From a virus, in the IMG/VR virus record IMGVR_UViG_3300021956_000013, positions 1,236 through 65,235 of that record: a DNA stretch of 64,000 nt; one strand, 5' to 3'. Below are positions 36,075-50,220 of the stretch, piece by piece (the first letter of the stretch is position 1; each line of letters begins with the position of its first letter). The position numbers were made by a program, and so were the translations under genes. The notes below the pieces were generated by a model. It saw only the letters and a list, made by a program, of their open reading frames with translations. It did no database searches and had not been told where the DNA came from.

Positions 36075-36321
36075 GCTTTCTAGATACCGTGCAAATCTGA
36101 AAAAATTTTTATATTTCATATTGACAAAAATCTGAATATTTTGCTAGTGTGTATGATACAGCATCCACTACACACCTATAAAATTTTTAGTGAGCACACC
36201 ACCACACACTAGTAAATTCTTTTATAACAAATAGATAACATCATGCGACACACCTACTAAACACCTAGTAAATGTCAGTGCTATCCTGTAATGTATAACT
36301 ATACAAAGAAAGGTAAATGAA

Positions 36322-36507
36322 ATGTTCAGAACACAAGACCAGACACTAGCAGTTGCTCACCTATGGGCTATTGAGATTCCCTATGAAGGTGTTGATTCTT
36401 ACTTAGGTCTATTTGCTACACAAGAACTAGCACAGGCGTTCATTGACGCTGATGAATACTTACAGGGCTACGCTGTTGCTATGCCTATGGCTTTGCCTAC
36501 TGCCTAA
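36322..36507 (+). CDS. Cassette ORF, hypothetical
   Basis: Motif promoter, GAAAGG RBS; stop abuts next motif. Confidence 0.7.
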   Translation: MFRTQDQTLAVAHLWAIEIPYEGVDSYLGLFATQELAQAFIDADEYLQGYAVAMPMALPTA

Positions 36508-36561
36508 TGTCAGTGGTATCACTTATACTTATAACATCAAACAAAGAATAGGAAATAATAA

Positions 36562-36708
36562 ATGTCAGTAGAACTAACAGAACTAGAACTAGAAATCGCA
36601 ACTGAACTTGCTTGCTATGACTTTGATGGAAATGGTAAGCAGTTCTGGGCAGAGGTAGAGAGACTTGCTCAGTTTGGAGAAAACTGGGGAGACCACCTGC
36701 CAGAGTAA
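36562..36708 (+). CDS. Cassette ORF, acidic 48 aa
   Basis: MSVELTELELEIATELACYDFDG...; motif promoter and RBS. Confidence 0.65.
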   Translation: MSVELTELELEIATELACYDFDGNGKQFWAEVERLAQFGENWGDHLPE

Positions 36709-36774
36709 ATGTCAGTGGTATCCACTACAATAAACCTATAAACAAATAAACCAACTAAAAGAAAGAAATACTAA

Positions 36775-36942
36775 ATGAAAATCTATTCAATAATCATCAC
36801 AGGCTCTAATGGCGTTGCCCCTATCTATGAAGTTCATTCTTGGGAAAAGGCAGAAGAAGTTATCCGTTCTACTATGAAACTAACTAATGAAGCCTTTACT
36901 TTTGAAGTAGTAGGCAGAGTAGAAGAAAGACAGGGGGAGTAA
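36775..36942 (+). CDS. Cassette ORF, 55 aa
   Basis: MKIYSIIITGSNGVAPIYEVHSWEKAEEV... Confidence 0.65.
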   Translation: MKIYSIIITGSNGVAPIYEVHSWEKAEEVIRSTMKLTNEAFTFEVVGRVEERQGE

Positions 36943-36999
36943 GTGTGGTTAGCCTTATTCTTAACCTTGCTCGTGTTGCTCGTATTGGTAAGTCAGTAG
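36943..36999 (+). CDS. TM micropeptide, 18 aa
   Basis: GTG start, WLALFLTLLVLLVLVSQ; GGGGAG upstream. Confidence 0.4.
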   Translation: MWLALFLTLLVLLVLVSQ

Positions 37000-37001
37000 T
37001 A

Positions 37002-37100
37002 ATGCCACAGATACAGGCTTTTGCTTGTAAGCGTTGCTCTACTATCGCAAGCGTATCGCTACTAGATAATAAACTAAAGATAAATAAATGTAATTGCTAA
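37002..37100 (+). CDS. Cys-rich micro-ORF, 32 aa
   Basis: MPQIQAFACKRC...KCNC. Confidence 0.5.
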   Translation: MPQIQAFACKRCSTIASVSLLDNKLKINKCNC

Positions 37101-37149
37101 GGTTGTGGGCGTGTCGCTATTGACATGCCCCAACTTTTGTGCCGACCCC

Positions 37150-37170
37150 TGTGGATAACTCTGTGGATAG
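37150..37170 (-). promoter_or_regulatory. Tandem DnaA boxes
   Basis: TGTGGATAA (reverse complement of TTATCCACA) at 37150 and TGTGGATAG at 37162. Confidence 0.6.
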
Positions 37171-37296
37171 TTGTTCATTTAGTTAATCTTTTAAGTTATT
37201 TGCAAAATGTTCGCAAACACGCTTATTTTGGCGTGTCAAATAGGGTCAAATGTCAGTGGTTAGGTATAGTCTAATAAAGTCAAAGAAAGGACAAAA

Positions 37297-37431
37297 ATGA
37301 AAGACAAAAAGACAGAACTAACCCAGATGTTAGCCAAGTATGCGAGAGCAGGAATACCCCTAACTAACGCTGAGAAAAACCTAATCAAGTATCTACTAGC
37401 CAAAGATAACAAAATGATAACGAATAAGTAA
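37297..37431 (+). CDS. Cassette ORF, 44 aa basic
   Basis: Motif promoter, GAAAGG RBS. Confidence 0.6.
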   Translation: MKDKKTELTQMLAKYARAGIPLTNAEKNLIKYLLAKDNKMITNK

Positions 37432-37525
37432 ATATTCGCAAAACTGAACATAATGGGCGTGTCAAAGGGTCTAAATGTCAGTGGTAGGGTATAGAGTAAT
37501 AATAGATAAAAGAAAGGCAAGTCAA

Positions 37526-37645
37526 ATGACTAACTACGAAATCAAAGCAAGATACAAAGAACTAATGCGTATCGCAGAAAGTGATGTAATGACAGCAAGC
37601 GAGTTTGATGAACTTATGGCAATGTTCGCAAAACTAAATAAATAA
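37526..37645 (+). CDS. Cassette ORF, 39 aa
   Basis: Motif promoter, GAAAGG RBS. Confidence 0.6.
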   Translation: MTNYEIKARYKELMRIAESDVMTASEFDELMAMFAKLNK

Positions 37646-37663
37646 AACTTAGTTTAGTTAGTG

Positions 37664-37706
37664 AGCCTGATTAGGTGAGCCTAGAAATAGCAAATAAACT
37701 AATCAG
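37664..37706 (+). ncRNA. Pseudoknot motif, variant copy
   Basis: gccTGATTAggt...aaacTAATCA; compensatory variant of the TGAGCA/TGCTCA pairing. Confidence 0.45.
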
Positions 37707-37773
37707 CAAATAAATAACTAAACAAAAACAAAACTAAATAAATAATAATCTACAAAAAAGAAATGAGAAATAA

Positions 37774-38184
37774 ATGAAAATAAAAACTTGGAAAGAAACC
37801 CAAATCCTTCTATCACTTAGCGACTATCGCAAGTTTTATGCGACTATCGCAGAACTGCCTAATGGTGAAAAGTCTATCGCTATCCATAACAAACTAATCA
37901 ACCTTAGCAATGTTTATCTAAACTATGACTATGAAAATGATACAATGCTATCTCAAAAAAATAGTGAGTGGAAATACTCTGCTGAACTAGATAGTTTTGC
38001 TACGAGTGAGTTTGTAAAAGTAAAAAACTTACTTGCTGAACTAAATGAGTTAGGCGTGAAAAGTTATTCTAACGAAATGCGTGTCAGTGATGGCGAAACT
38101 TATTTCTTAGCGTTTCTAAAAATGGAGTGCGTGTTGCGTTCTCGTGTGTTGCTTGCTCACTCTTATAGAGTAAAGCAACGCTAA
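37774..38184 (+). CDS. Hypothetical protein, 136 aa
   Basis: ORF with A-rich leader, followed by hairpin. Confidence 0.7.
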   Translation: MKIKTWKETQILLSLSDYRKFYATIAELPNGEKSIAIHNKLINLSNVYLNYDYENDTMLSQKNSEWKYSAELDSFATSEFVKVKNLLAELNELGVKSYSNEMRVSDGETYFLAFLKMECVLRSRVLLAHSYRVKQR

Positions 38185-38258
38185 AAATAAATTAGCAAAA
38201 AAAATAATTGTGTTAGTAAAAATAAAATTGCTAACGCAAAAATTTTTTGCCGACCGCC

Positions 38259-38272
38259 CGAACAAATGTTCG
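38259..38272. promoter_or_regulatory. SOS (LexA) box
   Basis: CGAAC-AAAT-GTTCG, matches the Gram-positive/actinobacterial CGAAC-N4-GTTCG consensus. Confidence 0.7.
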
Positions 38273-38329
38273 AATTAAGTGGAGCGTGTCGTTTCCCTAA
38301 ATGTCAGTGGTATGGTATAGGTTATAACT

Positions 38330-38476
38330 ATGAATAAATCAACTTGTTTCCTTTGCTCAGTCGCTACCCCTGCTCACCTTGTTGTTATTTCTAATGGCAA
38401 TGTGTTCCGTTCATGTGAGGCTTGCCTTGCTGGATACCCTGACCACCTAATCGAAACAACTATCGCTCTACCCTAA
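38330..38476 (+). CDS. Leaderless zinc-finger micro-ORF, 48 aa
   Basis: CFLC...CEAC; ATG about 6 nt after -10. Confidence 0.65.
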   Translation: MNKSTCFLCSVATPAHLVVISNGNVFRSCEACLAGYPDHLIETTIALP

Positions 38477-38490
38477 CGAAAGGTTCCACT

Positions 38491-38592
38491 ATGGAAAACT
38501 GCTGCTACTGCAACACTCCCTCTGTTCAAATCTGGGGGCAGGTCTGCTCAGATTGTGAGGACACCCTAGACTGGGGTGATGACGAAGACTAG
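38491..38592 (+). CDS. Zinc-finger acidic micro-ORF, 33 aa
   Basis: CCYC...CSDC, D-rich end; GAAAGG RBS. Confidence 0.6.
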   Translation: MENCCYCNTPSVQIWGQVCSDCEDTLDWGDDED

Positions 38593-38624
38593 ACTTGACA
38601 AAACACCCGAAAGGGTGCCGACCC

Positions 38625-38638
38625 CGAACAAATGTTCG
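38625..38638. promoter_or_regulatory. SOS (LexA) box
   Basis: Second identical CGAACAAATGTTCG. Confidence 0.7.
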
Positions 38639-38712
38639 ATTTACGTTGGGGGATTCTTTTCCCTAAATGTCAGTGGTAGGTGGTAGTGTATAACTATAAC
38701 GAAAGGAAGCCA

Positions 38713-38838
38713 ATGGAAATCATTCTCATTGAAGCAAGTTGCTCCAAATGCTGTGATTCACTGTTTTCAAGCAGCGAGCAAGAGTTCAAAACTCTACTAG
38801 ATAACCACGATTGCAAAACTGCGACCAGACCTTACTAG
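38713..38838 (+). CDS. CxxC...HxC mini-protein (family A)
   Basis: ASCSKCCDSLFSSSEQEFKTLLDNHDC. Confidence 0.65.
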   Translation: MEIILIEASCSKCCDSLFSSSEQEFKTLLDNHDCKTATRPY

Positions 38839-38891
38839 TCTGTGTCAGTGGTATCTGCTAAAATAAAACTAATCAAGAAAGGTAAAAACTA

Positions 38892-39041
38892 ATGGCAAAA
38901 ATGGCTGAACTATTCGAGGCAACTAACTATCCAGAGTTGGAGATTGCTGAGTGTGCTAAGTGTGGAACTGAAATCCTATTCGCAACTGAAACTGAGTTTG
39001 AGAAGTTGGTTGCTGAACACATACACACTTATCGCTGGTAG
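38892..39041 (+). CDS. CxxC...HxH mini-protein (family A)
   Basis: MAKMAELFEATN...AECAKCGTEILFATETEFEKLVAEHIH. Confidence 0.7.
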   Translation: MAKMAELFEATNYPELEIAECAKCGTEILFATETEFEKLVAEHIHTYRW

Positions 39042-39201
39042 GTGTGTCGCACTTGACAAAAGCCCTTCGGGGTGCCGACCGCAAAAATTTCCAAATGTCA
39101 ATACGACACGCCAAAAAATTTTCCAGAAATAAAGCGTGTCTAAATAATCAAATGTCAGTGGTCAGGTGTATAATAAAGGTATAAAGAAAAGGAAATAATA
39201 A

Positions 39202-39288
39202 ATGAGTGAAAAAGAAATGACACCAGAGCAGTTAGTAGCAGAGCAGGAATACCTTGCTTGGTTAGCAGAAGTTAGAAGACAAGGCTAA
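39202..39288 (+). CDS. Cassette micro-ORF, 28 aa
   Basis: Motif promoter and AAGGA RBS. Confidence 0.55.
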   Translation: MSEKEMTPEQLVAEQEYLAWLAEVRRQG

Positions 39289-39362
39289 CGCTCTGGCGTG
39301 TTTAACGCCTAATGTCAGTGGTATCCTGTAAAATAGAACTAATCAAAAGAAATGGAAAATAA

Positions 39363-39533
39363 ATGTTAGACAAGAACTCAAACATCTACCAAGTAGTAGA
39401 AGCCCTAAAAACTAAGAACTCAGTTTCTGCTGATGCTCCATACCCTTACCTGTCTGGTATGTGTTGGAGTTTGCTAAATGAAACTCAGCGTAAAAAGTTG
39501 ATAGAAATGGTAAATAAGATGGAGAATAAATAA
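39363..39533 (+). CDS. Cassette ORF, 56 aa
   Basis: Motif promoter; translationally coupled to next ORF. Confidence 0.65.
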   Translation: MLDKNSNIYQVVEALKTKNSVSADAPYPYLSGMCWSLLNETQRKKLIEMVNKMENK

Positions 39534-39629
39534 ATGGAAGACTGGAAACTCGCATTAGCAGAAATCCAAAAGTCAATGAGAGAAGACTTTATTTCTCAAA
39601 TCAAAACTAATGAACAGGAAAATAAATAA
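39534..39629 (+). CDS. Micro-ORF, 31 aa
   Basis: TAAATG coupling; GGAG RBS. Confidence 0.55.
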   Translation: MEDWKLALAEIQKSMREDFISQIKTNEQENK

Positions 39630-39835
39630 TGGTAAAAGTTGCTCTAGTAATCTCAACACTAATCTTAGGTGTATTCAGTTTTGTAATCGCTGACGCTTAT
39701 AGATACACTTCACTAATCAATGACCAAGAGAGTTATAAAGTATTCTCTGGTCAATGGGCGTTAGTTGGTGTTCAGTTTGTAGTTGGTTCTCTAATCTTGG
39801 CGTTGATGTTCATAATCAAATCACGCAAGAAATAA
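39629..39835 (+). CDS. Two-TM membrane protein
   Basis: Two hydrophobic helices, basic tail. Confidence 0.7.
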   Translation: MVKVALVISTLILGVFSFVIADAYRYTSLINDQESYKVFSGQWALVGVQFVVGSLILALMFIIKSRKK

Positions 39836-39890
39836 AAAAATAATCTTGTGGGTGTGTCGCTTGACATACCCCAAGATTTTTGCCGACCCC

Positions 39891-39899
39891 TGTGGATAA
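39891..39899 (-). promoter_or_regulatory. DnaA box
   Basis: TGTGGATAA within GCCGACCCCTGTGGATAAC, identical to 37141-37159. Confidence 0.6.
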
Positions 39900-39999
39900 C
39901 TTATAACGATTTGGTTACGAGAGTTAAGAAACACCCCCTAAATCCCCTAAATGTCAGTGGTATCCCCTATAATAGAAACATAACAAGAAAGGCTAACTA

Positions 40000-40152
40000 A
40001 TGAACTTACCAACCAAACTACACAAGAACCCTAGCAAGAGATACACCCTATTTGAATACACCATAAATGGCTCAACAGTTGTATCTGCTATTCATTTCTA
40101 CGACTTGCTCCCATTTCTAGCAGAACACCCAGAAGCCAAGCGTGTCCGCTAG
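40000..40152 (+). CDS. Cassette ORF, 50 aa
   Basis: Motif promoter, GAAAGG RBS. Confidence 0.65.
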   Translation: MNLPTKLHKNPSKRYTLFEYTINGSTVVSAIHFYDLLPFLAEHPEAKRVR

Positions 40153-40206
40153 GCTAAATGTCAGTGGTGCCCTGTATAATTGAACTAACTAAGAAAGGTA
40201 AAACTA

Positions 40207-40353
40207 ATGGCTAAAATGGCAGAACTATTTGAAGAGACTAACAGCATTATTTTTGATGTTGCTGAATGTGCAGAGTGTGGAGTTGAAATTGAATTCTCTA
40301 CTGATAAAGAATTTGCTGAATTGGTAAATGGACACGTTTGTGTCCGCTACTGA
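40207..40353 (+). CDS. CxxC...HxC mini-protein (family A)
   Basis: MAKMAELFEETN...AECAECGVEIEFSTDKEFAELVNGHVC; paralog of 38892. Confidence 0.7.
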   Translation: MAKMAELFEETNSIIFDVAECAECGVEIEFSTDKEFAELVNGHVCVRY

Positions 40354-40405
40354 TGTCAGTGGTCAGTTGTATAATTGAAATACCTAAAAGAAATGGAAAA
40401 ATAAA

Positions 40406-40594
40406 ATGGATAATATGGACAAGTTCTATGAACAGCGTGAGCAAGATTTCTGGACTTACTGGAACAAGGTAAAGGCTTATGCTGATGAAGCCAACACTGA
40501 TATTTATCAGGTTGTCAATTTTAGACAAATCTTTGACCAAGCCTATACGCTAGGTGCATTGCAAACACACAAGAAAGAAGATAATAATGAGTGA
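40406..40594 (+). CDS. Cassette ORF, 62 aa
   Basis: Motif promoter. Confidence 0.7.
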   Translation: MDNMDKFYEQREQDFWTYWNKVKAYADEANTDIYQVVNFRQIFDQAYTLGALQTHKKEDNNE

Positions 40595-40685
40595 AGAAGA
40601 AATAATAATTCTTGATAAACTAATTGACCACTTCAATTTTTTTGAAAAACTAATCGCTGAAAATAAAGAACAGGAAAAAAACTAA
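40587..40685 (+). CDS. Micro-ORF, 32 aa
   Basis: Overlap-coupled to neighbours. Confidence 0.5.
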   Translation: MSEEEIIILDKLIDHFNFFEKLIAENKEQEKN

Positions 40686-40885
40686 TGGACATCTATGAAA
40701 AATTTACTCAAGAAGAATTAGAGCAGATGCATGATGAAATGCTGGATGAAACTTATCCACCATACAGAATTGGATACACAGATTTTTATCCATCACAAAT
40801 TTTAGCAAACTGCGACCCAATCATGTATCAAATTTCTGTTCAAGAGTATGCAGACTTTTTGCAAGAGCAGGAAAATGAAGAATGA
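40685..40885 (+). CDS. Acidic phage hypothetical protein
   Basis: DEMLDETYP...PSQILANCDPI. Confidence 0.7.
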   Translation: MDIYEKFTQEELEQMHDEMLDETYPPYRIGYTDFYPSQILANCDPIMYQISVQEYADFLQEQENEE

Positions 40886-40941
40886 TTGCTCTGGGAATAA
40901 TTTTAACAGTTTTAGTGTTTATATATTTAGTAAATCAATAA
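40882..40941 (+). CDS. TM micropeptide, 19 aa
   Basis: MIALGIILTVLVFIYLVNQ; ATGA overlap. Confidence 0.5.
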   Translation: MIALGIILTVLVFIYLVNQ

Positions 40942-41067
40942 ATAAAATTGGTGGTGTGTCTTCTTGACATGCCACCTTTTTTGTGCCGACCGCCCCTGGC
41001 GTGTCGTGTATTAAGTGCTGATGTCAGTAGTCCCCTGTATAATTATTTTATCTAAGAAAGGCTAACT

Positions 41068-41181
41068 ATGGAAGAAAAGACCACCTGCGATTTCTGTTCT
41101 AATGAATGGATTGGCTATGTCCAAATTGGAAATGACTTACCTTGGGTATGCGAAACACACTGGGAAATGTACGCTAAGTAA
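41068..41181 (+). CDS. Zinc-finger micro-ORF, 37 aa
   Basis: CDFC...CETH. Confidence 0.65.
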   Translation: MEEKTTCDFCSNEWIGYVQIGNDLPWVCETHWEMYAK

Positions 41182-41233
41182 ATGTCAGTGGCTACCTGTA
41201 TAATTATTCTATCAACCAAGAAAGGCACTAACT

Positions 41234-41512
41234 ATGGCAGTATTCAATTTCATTTCTGATGATTCACACGGATGGATGGAAGTTTCTCTAATCGAATTCC
41301 CTGAAGCAATAAACTACGCATCAGGTTTTGGCTACATCAACGGAAATACTATTTATCTTGAAGAAGATGATGAGGCTGAAAACTTTATCTACCACCTGAG
41401 AAGTCAGGGTGAGCCTATCACTTTCGCTGAGAAAATCTATGACGGACAGTGGTATGGCAGAGCGTATGCTCGCAATGTCAGGGGTATGCACTATAATCAA
41501 ACTACTAACTAA
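41234..41512 (+). CDS. Hypothetical protein, 92 aa
   Basis: FISDDSHGW...IYLEED; 3' end contains next promoter motif. Confidence 0.7.
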   Translation: MAVFNFISDDSHGWMEVSLIEFPEAINYASGFGYINGNTIYLEEDDEAENFIYHLRSQGEPITFAEKIYDGQWYGRAYARNVRGMHYNQTTN

Positions 41513-41523
41513 GAAAGGCAACT

Positions 41524-41637
41524 ATGCTACTATACAGTGATGACTATGAGCCAGACAACTATGAGGGAGACCAAGACCTCAATGAGTATGAGGATGACTG
41601 GTCAACTGTTGAGAGCGAACTCTTCGGAGATTGCTAA
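41524..41637 (+). CDS. Very acidic micro-ORF, 37 aa
   Basis: SDDYEPDNYEGDQDLNEYEDDW; GAAAGG RBS. Confidence 0.6.
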   Translation: MLLYSDDYEPDNYEGDQDLNEYEDDWSTVESELFGDC

Positions 41638-41769
41638 CTCAGCACCCTTCGGGGTGCCGACCACGACACGCCCGAAAAACATTTAAGATAAAAAAAGATT
41701 TTCCCCATTTCCTATTGCCAAATGTCAGTGGTATCGCTTATAATAGAAGTATCAAGAAAGGAAAAACTA

Positions 41770-41925
41770 ATGAAAACTATTTGCGTATTTTGTCTAGAAG
41801 TCTATGGGGAAGACGCTATTGGTTGCTGGTCTTGTAATGAATACAAGGGCATAATGCCACTAAACGAAGAAACACTAAACTACTTAGGCGAAGACCTAGA
41901 AGACTGGGCAGAATACCTAGTCTAA
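41770..41925 (+). CDS. Zinc-finger acidic protein, 51 aa
   Basis: CVFC...CWSC. Confidence 0.7.
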   Translation: MKTICVFCLEVYGEDAIGCWSCNEYKGIMPLNEETLNYLGEDLEDWAEYLV

Positions 41926-41964
41926 TGTCAGTGGTCGCTGGTAAAATAATAACATCAACAAGAA

Positions 41965-42177
41965 ATGGAAAATAAAATGGAAAATGAAAAAAAGAGATAC
42001 ACCTTTGGTGGCTTCACATTTGGCACTAACAACCTGTTCAACCTAACTATCCTAGTTCGCAACCACGCTGGACACGGAACTAGCAACTCTGTTGAACTTG
42101 GACTAGAACTAAATACTGCTGAAATCCAAGAACTAATCACTGTTCTACTAACTAGAAATGTAAAGGAAGATAACTAA
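41965..42177 (+). CDS. Cassette ORF, 70 aa
   Basis: Motif promoter. Confidence 0.65.
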   Translation: MENKMENEKKRYTFGGFTFGTNNLFNLTILVRNHAGHGTSNSVELGLELNTAEIQELITVLLTRNVKEDN

Positions 42178-42368
42178 TGATGACACGCAAGGACTATGTT
42201 AGCACTGCTGAGATTTTGGCAGACTATCGCAGAGATTTTTACTCTACCCCCGAAACTGCTGACAGTTTTGAAGCAATGGTAAATGACTTTGCTCAAATGT
42301 TCGCAGATGACAACGAGAGATTTATGCGTTCTAAGTTTATTGACGCTTGCTTAGGAGAGGATTTCTAA
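42177..42368 (+). CDS. Hypothetical protein, 63 aa
   Basis: MTRKDY...AQMFADDNERFMRSKFIDAC, a common phage small-protein pattern. Confidence 0.75.
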   Translation: MMTRKDYVSTAEILADYRRDFYSTPETADSFEAMVNDFAQMFADDNERFMRSKFIDACLGEDF

Positions 42369-42521
42369 ATGGAAATTGTATTCGCAATACTTGGAGTTAT
42401 TCTAGTTGGTTATTTATTCTGGCAGAGTTATTTGCTTGCTAATTATTCTAAAATTATAGATAACCAAAAAGATGTTATCGCTAAGTTGGCTAGAGAGATA
42501 GACACACTAAAACCTTTTTAG
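42369..42521 (+). CDS. TM plus coiled-coil protein, 50 aa
   Basis: Hydrophobic N-terminus; GGAGAGG RBS. Confidence 0.6.
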   Translation: MEIVFAILGVILVGYLFWQSYLLANYSKIIDNQKDVIAKLAREIDTLKPF

Positions 42522-42648
42522 TTTTCTCAATCGCTACCCTTCGGGGTGGCGATTTGGGTCGGCAGCCCAAGGTTACATCTAGGTTACGATAATTAAGAAA
42601 CACACCCAAAATCTCCACGATGTCAGTGGTATTGTGTATAATAGGACT

Positions 42649-43470: not shown

Positions 43471-43501
43471 TATAATTATCTTATCAAACAAAGGAGAGTA
43501 A

Positions 43502-43633: not shown

Positions 43634-43708
43634 CTAGGTACCCTTCGGGGTCGGCACAATGTCAGTGGTCGTATGTATAATAGACTTACGAAAGAAAGAG
43701 GAAACCCC

Positions 43709-43843
43709 ATGAATGTATCAGTAGAAAAACTAATTGAGATGAAGGTATTGCGAGAGTCTATGTTTGGCTCTGGAGATTGGTATGTAATCTATACCGAAGA
43801 TGGACCTAAAGATGTATCCCTTGCTACCCTGACAAGTGAGTAA
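43709..43843 (+). CDS. Cassette ORF, 44 aa
   Basis: Motif promoter; stop abuts next motif. Confidence 0.65.
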   Translation: MNVSVEKLIEMKVLRESMFGSGDWYVIYTEDGPKDVSLATLTSE

Positions 43844-43892
43844 TGTCAGTGGTTGCCTGTAAAATAGAACTATCAAAAGAAAAGGGAAACTA

Positions 43893-44090
43893 ATGGAATG
43901 TTTAGATTGTATAAATAAAACTCATAAAATTTATTGGGGAGCCTTGTCCGAAAAAGACATGGAGTTATTGGGATACACCTACCATAAGTGTTTATTTTGT
44001 TCTCACCAACCTCTAATTTGGAATACCCTTATTGGAGATGCAGTCTGCGAGGGTTGCGGTGAATGGCAAGATGTCAGTGGTATCAGGTAA
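43893..44090 (+). CDS. Zinc-finger protein
   Basis: CLDC, CLFC, CEGC; ends DVSGIR. Confidence 0.7.
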   Translation: MECLDCINKTHKIYWGALSEKDMELLGYTYHKCLFCSHQPLIWNTLIGDAVCEGCGEWQDVSGIR

Positions 44091-44119
44091 AATAGAACTA
44101 TCAAAAGAAAAGGAAAAAA

Positions 44120-44404
44120 ATGAGACCAGTTGTAATGGATAGACACGTTGCCAACCTTGGACTACAAGCAGGTATGGGTGACGATTGGACAGAACTATTC
44201 TGCGATAAAGAGTTTATGGCTATGCTCCAGACTCACTATAACCAGATGGTGAAATACATAAAGGCTAAGTATCTTACTTATCCGTGTAATGATTTTGCTC
44301 CAGATACCCTTGCTCCAGACGAGCGAGATGGAATTGATTGGACGCTGGTATGCACTACTTGTCTGCACCATAAGCAAGACCATAATGTCAGTGGTATCAA
44401 GTAA
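44120..44404 (+). CDS. Cys/His-containing protein
   Basis: CTTCLHHKQDH; ends NVSGIK. Confidence 0.7.
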   Translation: MRPVVMDRHVANLGLQAGMGDDWTELFCDKEFMAMLQTHYNQMVKYIKAKYLTYPCNDFAPDTLAPDERDGIDWTLVCTTCLHHKQDHNVSGIK

Positions 44405-44434
44405 AATAGTATTATCAAAAGAAAAGGAAAACTA

Positions 44435-44956
44435 ATGGAACAAAACTTAGATGTAATGATTGCGACAGTATCAACAGATTGTCAGTGTAGTTATTTTGAC
44501 GAAGAACTAGATGACTTTGTTGCTATGGAGTATTGCGAAGGCGATTGCTACTACTGGCAGAAGGAAGATGTGATGATGGTGATTGGCGAATGGCAGTTGC
44601 TGAATGACATTGACGAAGATGACCTTATCCGTATCTCTGGAACTAAGATTGGTTGGCAGGGTAGAAGTGGATACAAGGATACAGACATTCTAGAACTACA
44701 CGGAGCGTTAGCCCTTGACGGAGATTTCCGTATCACTTGGACACTAGACATTCCAAACAAGAAACTAACTGCTAGGCGTTCATCTCACGATGAACCTATG
44801 GGAGCAAACTTTGAGATTGACTTTATCAAGATGACTACTTGCGACAATTGCGATAACGCCATCTCTGTTGATACTCACGCAGAAGAACTTGGTATGTGTG
44901 TTGATTGCTCTAACGAATACTTTACTCACAATGACGAAGAGCCTATTGACTTGTAG
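44435..44956 (+). CDS. Acidic Cys-rich protein, 173 aa
   Basis: SSHDEPMG motif, CDNC...CVDC. Confidence 0.75.
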   Translation: MEQNLDVMIATVSTDCQCSYFDEELDDFVAMEYCEGDCYYWQKEDVMMVIGEWQLLNDIDEDDLIRISGTKIGWQGRSGYKDTDILELHGALALDGDFRITWTLDIPNKKLTARRSSHDEPMGANFEIDFIKMTTCDNCDNAISVDTHAEELGMCVDCSNEYFTHNDEEPIDL

Positions 44957-44979
44957 AGAGTAATGTGAGACAATAGAGT

Positions 44980-45048
44980 ATGAATACAACAATAACGATA
45001 ATCACAATAGGAAGTTTAGCAATACTGCTATTCTTACTAAATCAGTAG
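44980..45048 (+). CDS. TM micropeptide, 22 aa
   Basis: MNTTITIITIGSLAILLFLLNQ. Confidence 0.45.
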   Translation: MNTTITIITIGSLAILLFLLNQ

Positions 45049-45188
45049 TCCTGCTACCCTCGAAAGAGGGTGCCAGGCTGCCGACCGCAAATGTAACAAA
45101 ACGATAAATCATTTACGAAACACCCTAAATGTCCCCTAAATGTCAGGGGTAGCCCTTATAATAGAACTACAACAAAGAAAGGAAACCA

Positions 45189-45566
45189 ATGGAAGATTAT
45201 TGGGATGATGTAGAAATGGCAGTTCAGTTTGCTCAGGGTATCGCTTTTGATACCTGCCACAAAATCTATGTTCTTATGGATGATAAGCAAGTAGAACTTA
45301 TGCGTGAGTATCAGTATGACGAGATTAGAACTAGAAGTGAAATGAAACCAGCAGAAATGTTTGACACTCTAAAAAAGTGGTATGCCGAAAGTTGTGCCTT
45401 GAAGTTTATTCAGGGTGTTCATAGCGTAGGTGAGAACGAAGACGAGAATGATGGTTTTGACACACTTATTCCACAAGGGGCAGAGCAAGAAGAAGACGAA
45501 TGCGACTTATGCTTTTCTCATTGTGGAGATACCTGCCAAGACGATGATGAAGAAGACGAAGACTAA
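45189..45566 (+). CDS. Acidic hypothetical protein
   Basis: GIAFDTCHKIY...SCALKFI; D/E tail. Confidence 0.75.
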   Translation: MEDYWDDVEMAVQFAQGIAFDTCHKIYVLMDDKQVELMREYQYDEIRTRSEMKPAEMFDTLKKWYAESCALKFIQGVHSVGENEDENDGFDTLIPQGAEQEEDECDLCFSHCGDTCQDDDEEDED

Positions 45567-45670
45567 TGGAACAAATAGTCTTAGAGTGTGAGAGTAATCA
45601 CGAATGGATTGGCTCACCGCTTTACTGCTCCGCCTGTGGAGTAGATAAAGGAAACGAAACCAACCCCTAA
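45566..45670 (+). CDS. Zinc-ribbon micro-ORF, 34 aa
   Basis: CESNHEW...CSACG. Confidence 0.6.
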   Translation: MEQIVLECESNHEWIGSPLYCSACGVDKGNETNP

Positions 45671-45723
45671 TGTCAGTGGTTAGGTTTATAATAGAAATAC
45701 AACAAAAGATAAGGAATAAATAA

Positions 45724-46125
45724 ATGGAAAACAACGAAAGCAAGCACCCTGTTCTTACTGCCCTAAATGGCAAGATAGAAGAACTACTAGCACAACTAGC
45801 AAAACTACAAGCAGACTACGAATTGCTTGATAGCAGATACGCAAGGGAAGTTAGAGCAAGGCAAGACCACGAAACTTACCTAAACGAAACTCTAATGAAC
45901 GCTATTGAGAATGGCTACGACAGAGAAACCATTTTCTATGTTGCTAACGAACTTGATGTTTCACTAACACAACTAAAAACATTTGTGGTTCAGGCAGAGT
46001 TTCAGGTAGAAGTCATTATGCCTATTGACGAAGAGTTTGATGCTGATGACTTGGACTTTACCCTAAGCCACGAAAATCTAAATGATTATACTTTCACAGG
46101 TATAATTTCTAGTGAAGAGAATTAG
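45724..46125 (+). CDS. Coiled-coil acidic protein
   Basis: 133 aa, motif promoter. Confidence 0.75.
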   Translation: MENNESKHPVLTALNGKIEELLAQLAKLQADYELLDSRYAREVRARQDHETYLNETLMNAIENGYDRETIFYVANELDVSLTQLKTFVVQAEFQVEVIMPIDEEFDADDLDFTLSHENLNDYTFTGIISSEEN

Positions 46126-46152
46126 GCGGTTCTAACCTTTCTTTTCCGCCTA

Positions 46153-46180
46153 ACACCTGAGTAAGTGTATAAACTGCTCA
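46153..46180 (+). ncRNA. H-type pseudoknot motif
   Basis: ACAC-c-TGAGTA-a-GTGT-ataaac-TGCTCA. Confidence 0.55.
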
Positions 46181-46289
46181 TTTTTTGTGCCGACCAAAAA
46201 TAACAAATCCATAACTTATTTACGATAGCCCTTGTAAATGTCAGGGGTAGGCTGTATAATAGAACTATCAAAGAAAGAGAGAAAACCCT

Positions 46290-46517
46290 ATGTTGTATGT
46301 AGCCCCTGATGGAAACTATGGTGAAGCAGAATACCTTGTTGTTGTAGATAACGAGAGTTTTGACGAACACTTTTACGGATACCTTGACACTTGTGCTGAC
46401 TGGCTAAGACCTAGTTTTGCTAAGTGGTTTGAAGAAAATGACCACGACTTTACCCAAGCAGATAACTTAGAGTGGGCTTGTTCCGTTTGTGAAGAGTGGT
46501 TAGAGAGTGAGAGATAA
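46290..46517 (+). CDS. Acidic hypothetical protein
   Basis: YVAPDGNYGEA. Confidence 0.7.
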   Translation: MLYVAPDGNYGEAEYLVVVDNESFDEHFYGYLDTCADWLRPSFAKWFEENDHDFTQADNLEWACSVCEEWLESER

Positions 46518-46645
46518 TGGCAGAAGTAAACTATTGGCGAAACATGTTCTATGACCTGCTTGAAGAAGTAGAGCAAATGTATGGACATGAAGATGTTTGG
46601 GAAAAGTTCAGGGAATACGCAAAAGAGTTAGAAGAGGATAACTAA
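46517..46645 (+). CDS. Acidic micro-ORF, 42 aa
   Basis: TAATG coupling on both sides. Confidence 0.6.
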   Translation: MAEVNYWRNMFYDLLEEVEQMYGHEDVWEKFREYAKELEEDN

Positions 46646-46833
46646 TGATAGTTCAGGTTCAATGCAACTGGTGTGAAAAACTATTTGATGATGTTGACAT
46701 CGTAGAGTGTGATGTTTGTAAGACAGACTCTTACCTAATGGACATAAGAGATGAGCCTTGGGGTCTTGACTCTTCCAAGGGGTATTCAATCTATGGTCAG
46801 GAAACAGGTCTAAGGGATAGTGACTTTATCTAA
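46645..46833 (+). CDS. Zinc-ribbon protein
   Basis: CNWC...CDVC. Confidence 0.7.
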   Translation: MIVQVQCNWCEKLFDDVDIVECDVCKTDSYLMDIRDEPWGLDSSKGYSIYGQETGLRDSDFI

Positions 46834-46876
46834 TGTCAGTGGTAGGGTTTATAATAGAACTAACGAAAGGAAACAA

Positions 46877-46978
46877 ATGATAAACTTTGACAATGTTATC
46901 AACGAAGAAGCAATCGAAAAACTAACAGATGAGCAAGCAGAAGCCTTATTGGCTATTTTAGAGAAAGCAGGATACTAA
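46877..46978 (+). CDS. Micro-ORF, 33 aa
   Basis: FDNVINEEAIEKLTDEQAEALLAIL; GAAAGG RBS. Confidence 0.65.
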   Translation: MINFDNVINEEAIEKLTDEQAEALLAILEKAGY

Positions 46979-47178
46979 TGCCTAAATACGCATTCAACTT
47001 TTGGGAAGAAAGCAAATGGGCTATCACCTTTGAAGCAGACAACCTAGACCACGCTAAGAAACTATTGGCAGAAGCAGAAGAAGAAATGGACTTAGATTGG
47101 TTGCCTGAAATGGAACGCTTTTTCAAAAAGGGTGATGAAACTTGGGACAGCGAAACACTAGCAGAAGTGGAGAACTAA
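46978..47178 (+). CDS. DpnD/PcfM-like acidic protein
   Basis: YAFNF...ITFEADNLDHAKKL pattern. Confidence 0.55.
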   Translation: MPKYAFNFWEESKWAITFEADNLDHAKKLLAEAEEEMDLDWLPEMERFFKKGDETWDSETLAEVEN

Positions 47179-47339
47179 TGGAACTAGCACAAGCATACGA
47201 AATAGTATTAGCAGACTTAGAAGAAAGAAATAGTCATACCATAGGTAGATTGCTTCACTGGGACTGGACAGGTCAAAATGAAGAACTTATGTATAGGGCT
47301 TGGTTGGTTGCTAAAACTTTTATTGAGCAGAACGAATAG
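47178..47339 (+). CDS. Hypothetical protein
   Basis: Coupled start MELAQAYE. Confidence 0.6.
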   Translation: MELAQAYEIVLADLEERNSHTIGRLLHWDWTGQNEELMYRAWLVAKTFIEQNE

Positions 47340-47409
47340 CACTACCCTTCGGGGTCGGCAGCCAAAAATAACAGAATGATAACGCTTTACGAAATCTTTT
47401 ACGAAACCC

Positions 47410-47438
47410 TTGACTTTTCCCCCATTTTCCCTTATACT
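47410..47438 (+). promoter_or_regulatory. Canonical sigma-A-type promoter
   Basis: TTGACT-17-TATACT. Confidence 0.7.
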
Positions 47439-47487
47439 TGTAGTATCAACAAAAGTTGAGAAAAACTACAAGTAGAAAGAAGCAAAA

Positions 47488-47646
47488 ATGGCAAACACAT
47501 TTACCATTCCATCTGTTGGCTCACAGTTCGCAACCCAGAAGTCTGGCGTTGTTGGCACAGTTCAGGAAGTAATCAAGAACGCAAATGGTTCATTCCGTAT
47601 CAAACTTGATGTTGCTGGACAGCCACGCTGGACAACTGCTAAGTAA
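47488..47646 (+). CDS. Small beta-barrel (SH3/KOW-like) protein, 52 aa
   Basis: PSVGSQFATQKSGVVGTVQEVIKNANGSFRIKLDV; biased codons. Confidence 0.75.
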   Translation: MANTFTIPSVGSQFATQKSGVVGTVQEVIKNANGSFRIKLDVAGQPRWTTAK

Positions 47647-47661
47647 GTCCTAGAAATAGGG

Positions 47662-47695
47662 CAGACCTGAGCAAGTCTGGCAAAAAAACTGCTCA
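47662..47695 (+). ncRNA. H-type pseudoknot motif
   Basis: CAGAC-c-TGAGCA-a-GTCTG-gcaaaaaaac-TGCTCA. Confidence 0.55.
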
Positions 47696-47701
47696 ACCCT
47701 A

Positions 47702-47730
47702 TTGACAAATCCCTTATCAACCTGTATAAT
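47702..47730 (+). promoter_or_regulatory. Consensus sigma-A-type promoter
   Basis: TTGACA-17-TATAAT. Confidence 0.8.
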
Positions 47731-47768
47731 TGTATTATACAAATAACCCTAATAGAAAGTAGAAAATA

Positions 47769-48209
47769 ATGGCAAGAGCCTTATCAGTAAAAGTTCCAAC
47801 ATCAAGTCTAATCGCTTTGTTGGAAGACAAAATCGCAACAATCCAAACTGCTATCGCAGATTATCCAAGAGCAAAGGCTCAATACAAGGAAGATGTAAAG
47901 GCATACAAGAAGTCTGTCCTAAACCTTGCCCTATCCAAGATTGCTTCTAACCCAGAAGTCTTGTTTGATAACGATAGCCTAGATGTTAGCACATCTTATC
48001 GCAATGATGTCCAAATCACTTTGGATAAGGACTTGTTTGAGTTGCCAGAAATGCCAGAGCAACCAGAAGACCCAAATCGTAAAGAGTGGATTGGCAGAGA
48101 CCACACAACTAAGTTGTCTGTTTTAGAGAAAACTCTGGCTGTTCTAAAACTAACAAATCAGGAAGAAGTAAGTGCTTCCACATACAACTCTGTAATGGAG
48201 TTGCTATAA
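47769..48209 (+). CDS. Hypothetical protein, 146 aa
   Basis: Consensus promoter; ALSVKVPT...LKLTNQEEVSASTYNSV. Confidence 0.8.
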   Translation: MARALSVKVPTSSLIALLEDKIATIQTAIADYPRAKAQYKEDVKAYKKSVLNLALSKIASNPEVLFDNDSLDVSTSYRNDVQITLDKDLFELPEMPEQPEDPNRKEWIGRDHTTKLSVLEKTLAVLKLTNQEEVSASTYNSVMELL

Positions 48210-48228
48210 ACCATAGGCTTACGCCTAA

Positions 48229-48256
48229 ACACCTAAGCAAGTGTCTAAACTGCTTA
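48229..48256 (+). ncRNA. H-type pseudoknot motif
   Basis: ACAC-c-TAAGCA-a-GTGT-ctaaac-TGCTTA. Confidence 0.55.
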
Positions 48257-48264
48257 TCTCTAAC

Positions 48265-48555
48265 AAGGTTGTTTAGTTTGGGTTCAATTCCCAAATAGAG
48301 AACAAACAAGCGAATGACGATTTGCTTGGAGTATGGCTGAACGAAGTTCTTTGTCTAGGAGGAACGAGAAAGGCACAGCGTGGGTTTAGCGACCCCAACT
48401 TAGCGGTTGAAAGCGTTGGTAGGATGATGGCGGTACTATAAGAGACTCCCAGACTACTCCTTGGTGGTAATAGACAATCCACCTACTCACACACTTCCCC
48501 CTGTGAAGATTGACTATCCTAATTAGATAGGTAAAATTAGCAGGGGGATTTTTTG
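48265..48555 (+). ncRNA. Candidate structured ncRNA with T-loop
   Basis: About 290 nt with no credible ORF; TTGGG-TTCAATT-CCCAA T-arm-like hairpin; ends at tccccctg/caggggga hairpin plus T-run. Confidence 0.35.
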
Positions 48556-48609
48556 TGCCGACCCCCATAACGTTTTGGTAACACTAGTAAAATTGTTTTA
48601 CGAAACACT

Positions 48610-48638
48610 TGACAAATCCCCGAAATAATGGGATAATT
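48610..48638 (+). promoter_or_regulatory. Sigma-A-type promoter
   Basis: TTGACA-17-GATAAT. Confidence 0.65.
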
Positions 48639-48679
48639 GAGTATCAAATAAATCCATTTATCACGAAAGGTGTCCATTT

Positions 48680-49693
48680 ATGGCTCACGAATTAGAAATC
48701 AACGAAGCAACAGGCGAAGCGTCTTTTGCTTCCCTACGCCAACCTGCTTGGCACAATCTTGGAACTGTGTTTCAGGAAGAAGTATCAACTGCTAAGATGT
48801 TGGAATTAGCAAAACTAGACAATTGGAATGTTCGTCTTGAAGATGTGGTTGTCCCTGCTGGTTTTACTAGCGACAGAAACTACTCATTCGTATCTCGCAC
48901 AAATCCATTCAACGCAGAACAAACAGACATTCTTGGTGTCGTTGGTGAGCGTTATGTTCCACTACAAAATGAAGACTTGTTTTCATTTGGCGATAACTTG
49001 CTAGATGGTGGTGGGCGTTGGGAAACTGCTGGTTCAATCAAGGGTGGCAGACAAGTTTTCGGTTCTATCGCATTAGAGCGTGAAACTGTCCTTGACCCTA
49101 ATGGCGTGTCTGATGTTGTCAAGTCATACCTGCTACTAAACACAAGCCACGATGGAAGTATCGCTATCCAAGCGTCTATTACTCCTGTTCGTGTAGTTTG
49201 TGCTAACACTCTAAACCTTGCTCTATCTTCTCTAAAAGGTAAAAAGGGTATCAAACAAACTTTCAAGATTAGACACACACAAACAGCAGAAGGTAAAATC
49301 GCTGTTGCTCGTGAAGCGTTGGGTCTTGCTAATCACTACTTAGACGAGTTTGATTTACTTGCTAAGGAAATGATTGCTAAGGAAATCACACAGGCTAAGT
49401 TTGATGAGATTGTTCTAAAAGCGTATCCAATGCCAACTAAGGACAGCAAGGGTTCTATGAAGAAGTGGTCAGATAAGATTGACCTTATTCAATCTATCTA
49501 TGTTGGCGATTACAACAACACAATTTCAGGAACTGCTTGGGGTGCTTTGAACGCATTGACAGAACGCCTAGATTGGTATCGCAACTCTCGTGGTTCAAAC
49601 AACGAAAGCATTTACGCAAGTGCTTCTGGTTTTGACCCTGTAATCAACGCAGAGAAAAATCGTTTGATGAACTTGGTTTTGGCAAGCGTATAA
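48680..49693 (+). CDS. DUF932 / TIGR03299 phage-plasmid protein
   Basis: MAHELE...PAWHNLG, GVVGERYVPLQN, ETAGSIKGGRQVF, SHDGS, TPVRVVCANTL, GTAWGALNA. Confidence 0.9.
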   Translation: MAHELEINEATGEASFASLRQPAWHNLGTVFQEEVSTAKMLELAKLDNWNVRLEDVVVPAGFTSDRNYSFVSRTNPFNAEQTDILGVVGERYVPLQNEDLFSFGDNLLDGGGRWETAGSIKGGRQVFGSIALERETVLDPNGVSDVVKSYLLLNTSHDGSIAIQASITPVRVVCANTLNLALSSLKGKKGIKQTFKIRHTQTAEGKIAVAREALGLANHYLDEFDLLAKEMIAKEITQAKFDEIVLKAYPMPTKDSKGSMKKWSDKIDLIQSIYVGDYNNTISGTAWGALNALTERLDWYRNSRGSNNESIYASASGFDPVINAEKNRLMNLVLASV

Positions 49694-49699
49694 TCTCGC

Positions 49700-49727
49700 A
49701 GACCTGAGCAAGTCTAAAAACTGCTTA
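49700..49727 (+). ncRNA. H-type pseudoknot motif
   Basis: AGAC-c-TGAGCA-a-GTCT-aaaaac-TGCTTA, 6 nt after stop. Confidence 0.55.
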
Positions 49728-49862
49728 CCAATTTCTCACTTGACAAAGTGCGAAATTTGGGTCGGCAATTTCTAACTAGTTAATCATTTATGTTGATTAC
49801 GAAATGGTTAAGATTTCCCTAAAACTATTGCATTTGTCAGTGGTCATCTGTATAATTGACTT

Positions 49863-50171
49863 ATGAATGAAAACGAAACTATTATCCTTACCCCTGTTTA
49901 TGACGAAGACAACGCACCTTACATCTACCCTGACGCAGATGACTTACAATCCTATCAAAGATTACAGTTTATCGTGTGGGGGCTAGAAAGCCTAGAAAAG
50001 CAACTATGGAACTCTGCTGAACGAGGCTGGCACGACACCAGTGGTCCCGAATTCCAATCATTCCTAAAGATGATTAGGGGTATCTACAACGAGAAGACTG
50101 ATAGCCTTACTAAGTATAACTTTGTAATCCTAGAAGACGAGATGTTAGAGCAAGCATCACAGATGTTCTAA
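49863..50171 (+). CDS. Leaderless hypothetical protein
   Basis: ATG about 6 nt after TATAAT; stop abuts next motif. Confidence 0.7.
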   Translation: MNENETIILTPVYDEDNAPYIYPDADDLQSYQRLQFIVWGLESLEKQLWNSAERGWHDTSGPEFQSFLKMIRGIYNEKTDSLTKYNFVILEDEMLEQASQMF

Positions 50172-50220
50172 TGTCAGTGGTATCCCCTATAATAAGAACC
50201 TAACAGAAAGAGAAAACCCT

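Follow-up and report, generated by a model that had tools for sequence, protein, structure and literature searches.

The sequence analysed here is a stretch of 64,000 nucleotides (hereafter the window) that spans bases 1236-65235 of the 70,937-base IMG/VR record IMGVR_UViG_3300021956_000013, which has a CheckV completeness of about 70%. The window carries, on one strand, an array of 30 promoter-like repeats placed ahead of small open reading frames (ORFs). Judged by its letters and spacing, the repeat has the form of a known actinobacterial promoter, the PafBC or RecA-NDp promoter. The reading favoured here, with a probability of roughly 70%, is that the 30 repeats are working PafBC-dependent promoters, and that a lytic phage relies on the PafBC of its host for the expression of this array of gene cassettes.

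Sequence and layout of the promoter array

Scanning the window for the exact pattern TGTCAGTGGT-N6-TANNNT revealed 24 copies, all on the plus strand between 36508 and 50193, where 0.02 were expected. When one mismatch was tolerated in the 10-mer, 30 sites were obtained, with starts from 36273 to 50172 and the last end at 50193 (Table 1). The looser published form, TGTC[AG]G-N10-TANNNT, was searched on both strands of the 70.9 kb record and gave 30 copies on the plus strand, none on the minus strand and two in the reversed control, and the record is otherwise free of such copies beyond 36273-50193.

The six letters TGTCAG are invariant in the 30 sites, and each letter of the TGGT that follows is present in 27-29 of them. 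Directly 5' of the box, the two A are found in 24 and 28 sites, respectively, while T and A at positions 27 and 28, counted from the start of the box, occur in 25 and 28. Site selection made the TA and the last T of the hexamer common to all sites, and a TG is placed at -14/-13. The -35 region (-35 to -30) showed zero information content across the 30 sites, the best match to TTGACA being 5/6 at one site, 4/6 at two and at most 3/6 at 27.

The distance to the start codons allowed the transcription start to be mapped in silico. A leader of 15-37 nt (61% A) is present at 27 of the 30 sites, each with a purine-rich Shine-Dalgarno sequence, which contains AAAGG in 18. At 38302, 42621 and 49835, the A of an ATG lies exactly at position 28, the predicted +1 seven bases past the hexamer, and the mRNAs from these sites would be leaderless. 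Among 817 sites of related phages, the ATG is at position 28 in 55 and at position 29 in 40, compared to 0-8 at neighbouring positions; this stacking places TGTCAG at -28 to -23 and the predicted -10 hexamer at -12 to -7.

These results agree with a preliminary description of the window, which had reported a same-strand array of 30 strictly spaced copies, the 10-mer at -28 to -19 (now backed by start codons stacked 7-8 nt past the hexamer) and, behind nearly all copies, an A-rich leader, usually with a ribosome-binding site, and a short ORF. Its treatment of the 10-mer as the unit needs amending: the 10-mer is exact in 24 of 30 sites here, and the core conserved across relatives is the 8-mer TGTCAGTG.

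The ORFs behind the promoters encode 28-173 amino acids (aa). The interval 35668-50457 contains 49 ORFs; the predicted isoelectric point is below 5.2 for 34 of them, and CxxC motifs are present in 21. Pfam and PHROG families were matched by almost none of the cassette ORFs, for most of which homologues were detected in just 0-8 of 120 related loci. We infer that these mini-proteins, mostly acidic or zinc-ribbon, are products of host-takeover or anti-defence genes. Roughly half of the promoters directly adjoin or overlap the stop codon of the ORF before them, where a hairpin is lacking; a module of terminator and GCCGACC heptamer precedes the remainder. Pieces of several cassettes, 90-99% identical, were found in one metatranscriptome (Logan contigs), which may contain DNA and cannot show starts. 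Joints at the promoter sites in contigs of relatives were short and unreliable.

Table 1. Window coordinates of the promoter repeats and of other features of the small-gene arm.
Feature	Position	Strand	Remarks
PafBC-type promoter 1	36273..36294	+	box TGTCAGTGCT, -10 TAATGT; leader 21 nt, ORF 36322
PafBC-type promoter 2	36508..36529	+	box adjoins stop codon of upstream ORF
PafBC-type promoter 3	36710..36731	+	exact pattern
PafBC-type promoter 4	37251..37272	+	operon head; upstream terminator, GCCGACC, DnaA box
PafBC-type promoter 5	37476..37497	+	exact pattern
PafBC-type promoter 6	38302..38323	+	leaderless, ATG at predicted +1 (38330); LexA box 29 nt upstream
PafBC-type promoter 7	38668..38689	+	LexA box 29 nt upstream
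PafBC-type promoter 8	38843..38864	+	exact pattern
PafBC-type promoter 9	39153..39174	+	exact pattern
PafBC-type promoter 10	39313..39334	+	exact pattern
PafBC-type promoter 11	39952..39973	+	operon head; upstream terminator, GCCGACC, DnaA box
PafBC-type promoter 12	40159..40180	+	exact pattern
PafBC-type promoter 13	40354..40375	+	box adjoins upstream stop codon
PafBC-type promoter 14	41022..41043	+	box TGTCAGTAGT; 3' of terminator 40950-40976
PafBC-type promoter 15	41183..41204	+	box TGTCAGTGGC
PafBC-type promoter 16	41476..41497	+	box TGTCAGGGGT; within 3' end of ORF 41234-41512
PafBC-type promoter 17	41723..41744	+	sole site with 5/6 -35-like hexamer
PafBC-type promoter 18	41926..41947	+	exact pattern
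PafBC-type promoter 19	42621..42642	+	leaderless, ATG 42649
PafBC-type promoter 20	43455..43476	+	within 3' end of ORF 43108-43470
PafBC-type promoter 21	43660..43681	+	exact pattern
PafBC-type promoter 22	43844..43865	+	exact pattern
PafBC-type promoter 23	44072..44093	+	overlaps end of ORF 43893-44090
PafBC-type promoter 24	44386..44407	+	overlaps end of ORF 44120-44404
PafBC-type promoter 25	45141..45162	+	box TGTCAGGGGT
PafBC-type promoter 26	45671..45692	+	exact pattern
PafBC-type promoter 27	46239..46260	+	box TGTCAGGGGT
PafBC-type promoter 28	46834..46855	+	exact pattern
PafBC-type promoter 29	49835..49856	+	leaderless, ATG 49863
PafBC-type promoter 30	50172..50193	+	exact pattern
Box-less extended -10 promoter (TGc-TATAAT)	35613..35641	+	precedes 60 aa helix-turn-helix gene 35668-35850, head of arm
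Canonical promoter TTGACT-17-TATACT	47410..47438	+	precedes conserved 52 aa gene
Perfect TTGACA-17-TATAAT promoter	47702..47730	+	precedes conserved 146 aa gene
TTGACA-17-GATAAT promoter, TG extension	48609..48637	+	precedes DUF932 gene
DUF932 protein, 337 aa	48680..49693	+	conserved core gene of arm
Perfect LexA (SOS) box CGAACAAATGTTCG	38259..38272	+	29 nt upstream of promoter 6
Second identical LexA box	38625..38638	+	29 nt upstream of promoter 7
Terminator hairpin, operon-head module	37107..37130	+	T run and GCCGACC follow
Similar terminator hairpins	39850-39871, 40950-40976	+	common sequence GGGYGTGTC...GACATRCCC
About 47 small early ORFs	36322..50457	+	28-173 aa, plus one of 337 aa

Likeness to chromosomal PafBC promoters and occurrence of the motif in related phages

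The in vivo consensus of PafBC promoters is tGTCgg(N10)tA(N3)T, a sequence of 22 nt in which the 3' part is the -10 of the primary sigma factor (SigA, sigma-A) and the 5' part is a '-26 element' at -23 to -28, the -35 being absent (Mueller et al., 2021, PMC8635444). Cryo-electron microscopy placed PafBC between the DNA and SigA domain 4, where the helix-turn-helix (HTH) of PafB reads GTC through R46 and R50 and that of PafC holds domain 4, a mechanism termed 'sigma adaptation' (PMC8635444). PafBC is a heterodimer of the WYL-domain proteins PafB and PafC whose activation requires single-stranded DNA (ssDNA), and it joins RNA polymerase on such promoters only, and only once ssDNA-bound (Schilling et al., 2025, PMC11804915). 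The RecA-NDp motif was first defined by Gamulin et al. (2004), as cited in PMC6789036 and PMC8223512, and at host recA and uvr genes the PafBC motif is sometimes paired with a LexA box (PMC8223512).

The published bipartite motif, with its invariant GTC and N10 spacing, is fitted by 30 of the 30 phage sites. The consensus of Gamulin and co-workers reportedly reads tTGTCRgtg-N8-TAnnnT. The phage array shares with chromosomal PafBC promoters the 22 nt bipartite arrangement TGTC[A/G]G-N10-TAnnnT, the element at -28 to -23, the lack of a -35, the sigma-A -10, the invariant GTC and the occasional pairing with LexA boxes, as at recA and uvr (PMC8223512). It differs in belonging to a lytic phage, with 30 sites in 14 kb on one strand, all near the optimum, with consensus TATAAT hexamers and orphan mini-genes downstream, whereas the chromosomal sites drive repair genes. 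The preliminary description had interpreted the repeats as promoters in which a box read by a dedicated activator stands in place of the -35, and the match to the PafBC class is consistent with that interpretation.

The pattern TGTCAGTG-N8-TANNNT was counted in actinobacterial genomes against a reversed control (count/control), which gave 11/0 in an Arthrobacter genome and 24/0 in a Streptomyces genome. Among 201 sampled Actinomycetota, large genomes reached 43/0, 39/0, 28/0 and 22/1, and small ones mostly had 0-2 matches. Among the host matches listed, the 8-mer is followed directly by G or C, as it is in 96% of the phage-clade sites. Upstream of recA, the motif was found in 7 of the 30 genomes sampled, each of them high in GC. 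None of these conclusions draws on the unpublished genomes G008, G055 and G095. The full 12-mer of the phage, AATGTCAGTGGTCnCCGGTAAAAT, with a TAAAAT hexamer, precedes an Arthrobacter gene of the DUF222+HNH type, which corresponds to the 13E12 family among the RecA-NDp genes of mycobacteria, and a near-identical promoter is present in Streptomyces.

Across 185,579 species genomes the exact 12-mer had 44 matches, close to the chance estimate, the exceptions being the DUF222 promoters of Arthrobacter and Streptomyces and a few phage contigs mis-binned in metagenome-assembled genomes (MAGs). The exact 12-mer promoter occurs on more than one contig in the MAG 'bacterium CTOTU1359' (L137 and L157, one contig of 122 kb) and in those named 'WOR-3' (L150, L152 and L155) and 'Bacteroidia' (L136 and L142), and these may be mis-binned phage contigs. 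In one actinobacterial genome (L191), TGTCAGTGGT-N6-TATTAT precedes the gene of a 731 aa protein and may be there by chance.

The motif is also widespread among related phages. An IMG/VR scan with the exact box plus TATAAT as the query yielded at least 120 contigs, and 1.14 Mb of loci (about 39% GC) were retrieved. In these loci, TGTC[AG]G-N10-TANNNT occurs 820 times on the major strand and 11 times on the minor strand, with seven matches in the reversed control; five or more sites are present in 69 of the 120 loci and ten or more in 35. The clade consensus is aaaTGTCAGtgg-N4-TGn-TAtAaT, in which the TG at -15/-14 (T 57%, G 66%) makes a proper extended -10. The 8-mer is unchanged in complete relatives whose portal is about 50% identical, and only three cassette ORFs are common to this phage and the one complete relative compared in detail. 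Four related contigs of slightly higher GC (L087, L099, L039 and L065; GC 0.40-0.435) have TGTCGG rather than TGTCAG at most sites, a lineage-specific preference that might track the PafB of the host.

The portal of the phage is 45% identical to that of Streptomyces BE-cluster siphoviruses (Stanwilliamsviridae: Jay2Jay and Coruscant, about 131-134 kb), and the minus strand carries its portal, protease and capsid genes. Jay2Jay is syntenic with the window, with small same-strand genes followed by glycosyltransferases, ribonucleotide reductase and portal, which indicates that the array corresponds to the early host-takeover arm of that family. No tyrosine integrase or resolvase was found in five complete relatives (113-119 kb), and DNA of the phage is present in freshwater metagenomes. 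Together with the BE kinship and a WhiB gene, these observations point to a lytic freshwater actinophage, a siphovirus of about 100 kb. An actinobacterial host is indicated by WhiB, the BE-cluster portal kinship, the leaderless starts and LexA boxes of actinobacterial type.

The motif had first been described as unrecognised, which does not stand, as it equals the actinobacterial PafBC / RecA-NDp promoter (PMC8635444). The accompanying statement that no described phage uses it holds for the literature searched, which, using RecA-NDp or pairing PafBC with phages, does not describe PafBC promoters in a phage genome; a search for the 10-mer as a text string gave unrelated matches only. Thus the class of promoter is an established one, and what seems new is that a lytic clade of phages uses it wholesale.

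Proposed reading of the box and order of expression

In the proposed mechanism, each promoter would combine a canonical sigma-A -10, without a -35, with the -26 element TGTCAG at -28 to -23, extended to AATGTCAGTGGT. Host PafBC, once activated by ssDNA, would insert between the promoter and sigma-A domain 4, and the housekeeping RNA polymerase would then initiate at the PafBC-type promoters of the phage.

Searches for a reader encoded by the phage gave little. Five complete relatives yielded no Sigma70_r2 domain, and no WYL domain was found in the record or in four complete relatives; a phage sigma factor, for which a weak r4-like HTH was the sole match, and a phage WYL/PafBC homologue were accordingly rejected. 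WhiB is encoded by this phage and by all five complete box-bearing relatives, and is present also in Jay2Jay, Coruscant and TM4. Enrichment of the motif was absent in Jay2Jay, Coruscant, TM4, Bxz1 and phiC31 (0-3 matches, at or below the control). The failure to find a phage WYL or sigma gene, the occurrence of WhiB in box-less phages and the scarcity of the HTH protein at the head of the arm make host PafBC the best-supported reader. Of the readers suggested in the preliminary description, the host factor is thus the one favoured, at the expense of a phage-encoded or WhiB-like protein. Promoters of a virion RNA polymerase (N4-like or crAss-like), suggested by an ORF of 3122 aa, were discarded when this ORF proved to be a tape measure protein, and readings as sigma-54, MerR-type or inverted -35 promoters, made from the letters alone, were dropped on the match to PafBC.

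A phage-encoded protein without a WYL domain could nevertheless read the box, mimicking or replacing PafBC in the manner of MotA/AsiA, and the candidates would be the 60 aa HTH protein and any gene lying in the 30% of the genome not covered by the record, which is about 70% complete. The HTH gene stands at the start of the arm, preceded by an extended -10 promoter that lacks the box, has homologues with 39% identity in two of the five complete relatives, and its frame gives weak, below-cut-off Sigma70_r4 matches in four of the five. This alternative is unlikely, because the sequence and spacing of the box are those of the host PafBC element, itself enriched in actinobacterial chromosomes, and because the complete relatives revealed neither sigma-70 region 2 nor a WYL domain. 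The HTH protein was also rejected as the reader on its own record: it has no Pfam family, its sole family match, to a stretch close to the beginning of a PHROG profile for HNH endonucleases, is weak (E = 2e-4), and a protein search recovered it from just two of the five complete relatives, with homologues in 4 of 120 loci.

WhiB-like (Wbl) proteins bind sigma-A domain 4, and the presence of WhiB in this phage and in every complete box-bearing relative would suit a reader of this kind. The idea is very improbable, as WhiB occurs equally in three phages where the motif is not enriched (Jay2Jay, Coruscant and TM4), and whiB (record bases 68693-68983, beyond the window) lies far from the array on the opposite strand; WhiB was rejected as the reader on its occurrence in box-less phages. 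No Wbl protein is known to recognise a sequence of 10-12 bp.

The arm also contains box-less promoters with a -35 or a TGn (Table 1), which imply that the host polymerase reads canonical promoters, and the two groups suggest that two promoter classes, ordinary and PafBC-type, coexist in the arm. The genes behind the ordinary promoters are far better conserved than those of the PafBC-type cassettes: homologues among the 120 loci were found in 66 for the DUF932 gene, 21 for the 146 aa gene and 23 for the 52 aa gene. The DUF932 product is about 54% identical to that of a BE-cluster Streptomyces phage gene, located about 1.3-2.3 kb from the left end and in two places per record.

These promoters bear on the possibility that the array serves the host RNA polymerase, together with sigma-A, RbpA and CarD, as -10-only or extended -10 promoters, in which the box would contribute little, as a relic or secondary contact. 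The -10 hexamers come close to the consensus, a TG stands at -15/-14 in most sites of the relatives and at -14/-13 here, and many mycobacterial promoters have no recognisable -35 (PMC8635444). However, the box is more conserved than the -10 and has outlived a divergence that erased nearly all cassette genes, the box-less promoters of the same arm have a proper -35 or TGn, and PafBC promoters are not recognised by RNA polymerase with SigA alone, according to the model figure in PMC8635444. The possibility is considered improbable.

Slightly less probable again is that the array chiefly titrates PafBC or the PafBC-polymerase complex, or binds a repressor of early genes, blunting the damage and defence response of the host. 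There are 30 near-optimal sites per genome copy, and Rafique 2025, as cited in PMC12848934, links PafBC to mycobacteriophage resistance. PafBC, however, does not bind promoter DNA without RNA polymerase (PMC11804915), and every site has an exactly spaced -10 and a start site, followed by Shine-Dalgarno and ORF at 27 of 27 leadered sites and by the ATG itself at the three leaderless ones. A pure decoy needs no -10, start, Shine-Dalgarno or ORF, which disfavours a decoy-only role; titration and promoter roles are not mutually exclusive.

If the repeats are indeed PafBC-dependent, expression of the arm might proceed in two tiers. The ordinary promoters (DUF932, its two neighbours and the HTH gene) would fire on entry, and ssDNA from end resection, replication or host-DNA breakdown would then activate PafBC and hence the 30 cassettes. 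Both this order of firing and the dependence on PafBC itself are what we infer.

Several observations weigh against PafBC dependence. It presupposes pafBC in the host, and a PstS-like gene of the phage, compared with 201 genomes of the class, had a best identity of 37% and pointed out no host. In the low-GC genomes sampled, the motif is absent within 400 nt of recA. Of five small actinobacterial genomes, four have no WYL match, and the fifth (1.4 Mb), with a tandem pafBC-like WYL pair, has zero strict TGTCRGTG-N8-TANNNT sites. The -10, near the consensus TATAAT and often with a TG nearby, might fire without an activator, and in a record about 70% complete a reader without a WYL domain would escape detection. 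The starts are predictions made in silico, and the lone RNA library cannot show starts and may hold DNA. Finally, early genes that depend on ssDNA face a bootstrapping problem, which the two-tier model might solve.

The arrangement resembles the middle promoters of phage T4 controlled by MotA/AsiA, in which a box also replaces the -35, the primary sigma reads the -10 and an adaptor bridges the DNA and sigma domain 4. The MotA box is TGCTT-type and centred at about -30. The phage box TGTCAGTG is centred at about -25, nearer the -10, and does not qualify as a MotA box. In the 'sigma appropriation' of T4 the adaptors are encoded by the phage and remodel domain 4, whereas here the box is that of the host; for a phage adaptor, no sigma or WYL gene was found and almost no cassette matched a family, MotA and AsiA not having been searched by family. 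PafBC was likened to MotA/AsiA in PMC8635444 itself.

The likeness of layout to T4 MotA promoters and to T4 PeSL cassettes, drawn in the preliminary description, holds in that a box substitutes for the -35 and repeated promoters precede variable small genes. The T4-type PeSL cassettes and the terminal host-takeover modules of SPO1 and T5 use ordinary sigma-70 or sigma-A early promoters. They also comprise many short early genes, each with a strong promoter of its own, the genes being variable and the promoter kept. As in PeSL, some of the phage cassettes start after a terminator hairpin, and about half abut the previous stop without one. The difference is that the repeated unit here would be an activator-dependent hybrid promoter.

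Other features of the arm and significance

In addition to the promoters, sites for host factors were found in the arm. The LexA boxes, of Gram-positive/actinobacterial type, are two identical perfect copies, where 0.41 were expected in a search allowing one mismatch; both come after GCCGACC, and promoters 6 and 7 drive small zinc-ribbon ORFs. Perfect DnaA boxes (TTATCCACA) number nine in the window, with one expected, and those at 37150-37158 and 39891-39899 precede promoters 37251 and 39952 in the place that the LexA boxes occupy elsewhere. Five DnaA boxes cluster at 54016-54359, where the plus and minus gene blocks meet, and this cluster (54.0-54.4 kb) is a candidate origin. The heptamer GCCGACC has 16 copies in both orientations between 37141 and 53715 (0.84 expected), and in five aligned operon heads it directly follows the terminator hairpin and T run. 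What recurs at operon heads is a module of hairpin, GCCGACC and a host-factor box, which varies between LexA and DnaA.

LexA/SOS control of prophage induction, and the induction of plasmid leading-region genes by incoming ssDNA, are established cases in which a mobile element ties its expression to a host sensor of damage or ssDNA, as the phage array would do. Those LexA systems work by release of a repressor, in contrast to the activator PafBC here, and this phage is seemingly strictly lytic, with no integrase found in five complete relatives.

The BE-cluster phages Jay2Jay and Coruscant have the same small-gene arm, syntenic beside glycosyltransferase, ribonucleotide reductase and portal, with DUF932 shared and every small gene behind its own promoter after a hairpin. 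In Jay2Jay, however, the early promoters are TTGnnn-N17-TAGACT, with a -35, and neither Jay2Jay nor Coruscant is enriched in the PafBC motif. The terminal repeat of BE-cluster phages is long, about 11 kb, while in a complete relative of 116,220 bases the 'direct terminal repeat' is instead a short 45-base unit in tandem at both ends.

Elsewhere in the window, the tape measure ORF (4002-13370, minus strand) has a good match to its family over the first ~650 residues only, and its length suggests an unusually long tail. Genes for a PstS-like phosphate-binding protein, an NAD-dependent sugar epimerase/dehydratase, UDP-galactopyranose mutase and two glycosyltransferases lie at 56162-62021, and two further glycosyltransferases at 31972-33932. 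Record bases 65033-70831, on the minus strand, encode a ferritin/Dps-like protein, Hsp20, WhiB, an M23 peptidase and an Hva1-TUDOR domain protein. No tRNAs were found in the window, and a near-identity search of the phage collection gave no match.

Taken more broadly, we lean, at somewhat better than even odds, towards a widespread and strictly lytic freshwater actinophage clade that, lacking an early activator of its own, uses host PafBC as the master switch of its mini-proteins. The alarm of the host would thereby fire the counter-measures of the phage; the 30 sites might also drain PafBC, and the LexA and DnaA boxes would add further host inputs.

So far, PafBC and sigma adaptation have been described solely as a response of chromosomes to DNA damage, mostly from mycobacteria. 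If the reading is true, phages exploit this pathway too, in at least 120 metagenomic contigs, and the system would be the host-supplied counterpart of T4 MotA/AsiA; it would also explain how the timing of early genes is achieved with neither a sigma factor nor an RNA polymerase of the phage's own. As the motif is conserved across Actinobacteria, the claim is testable in M. smegmatis or Streptomyces, despite phage and host being uncultured. The motif offers a simple sequence marker for early genes and for an actinobacterial host in freshwater viromes, and the promoters mark the mini-proteins downstream of them as candidate host-takeover or anti-defence factors.

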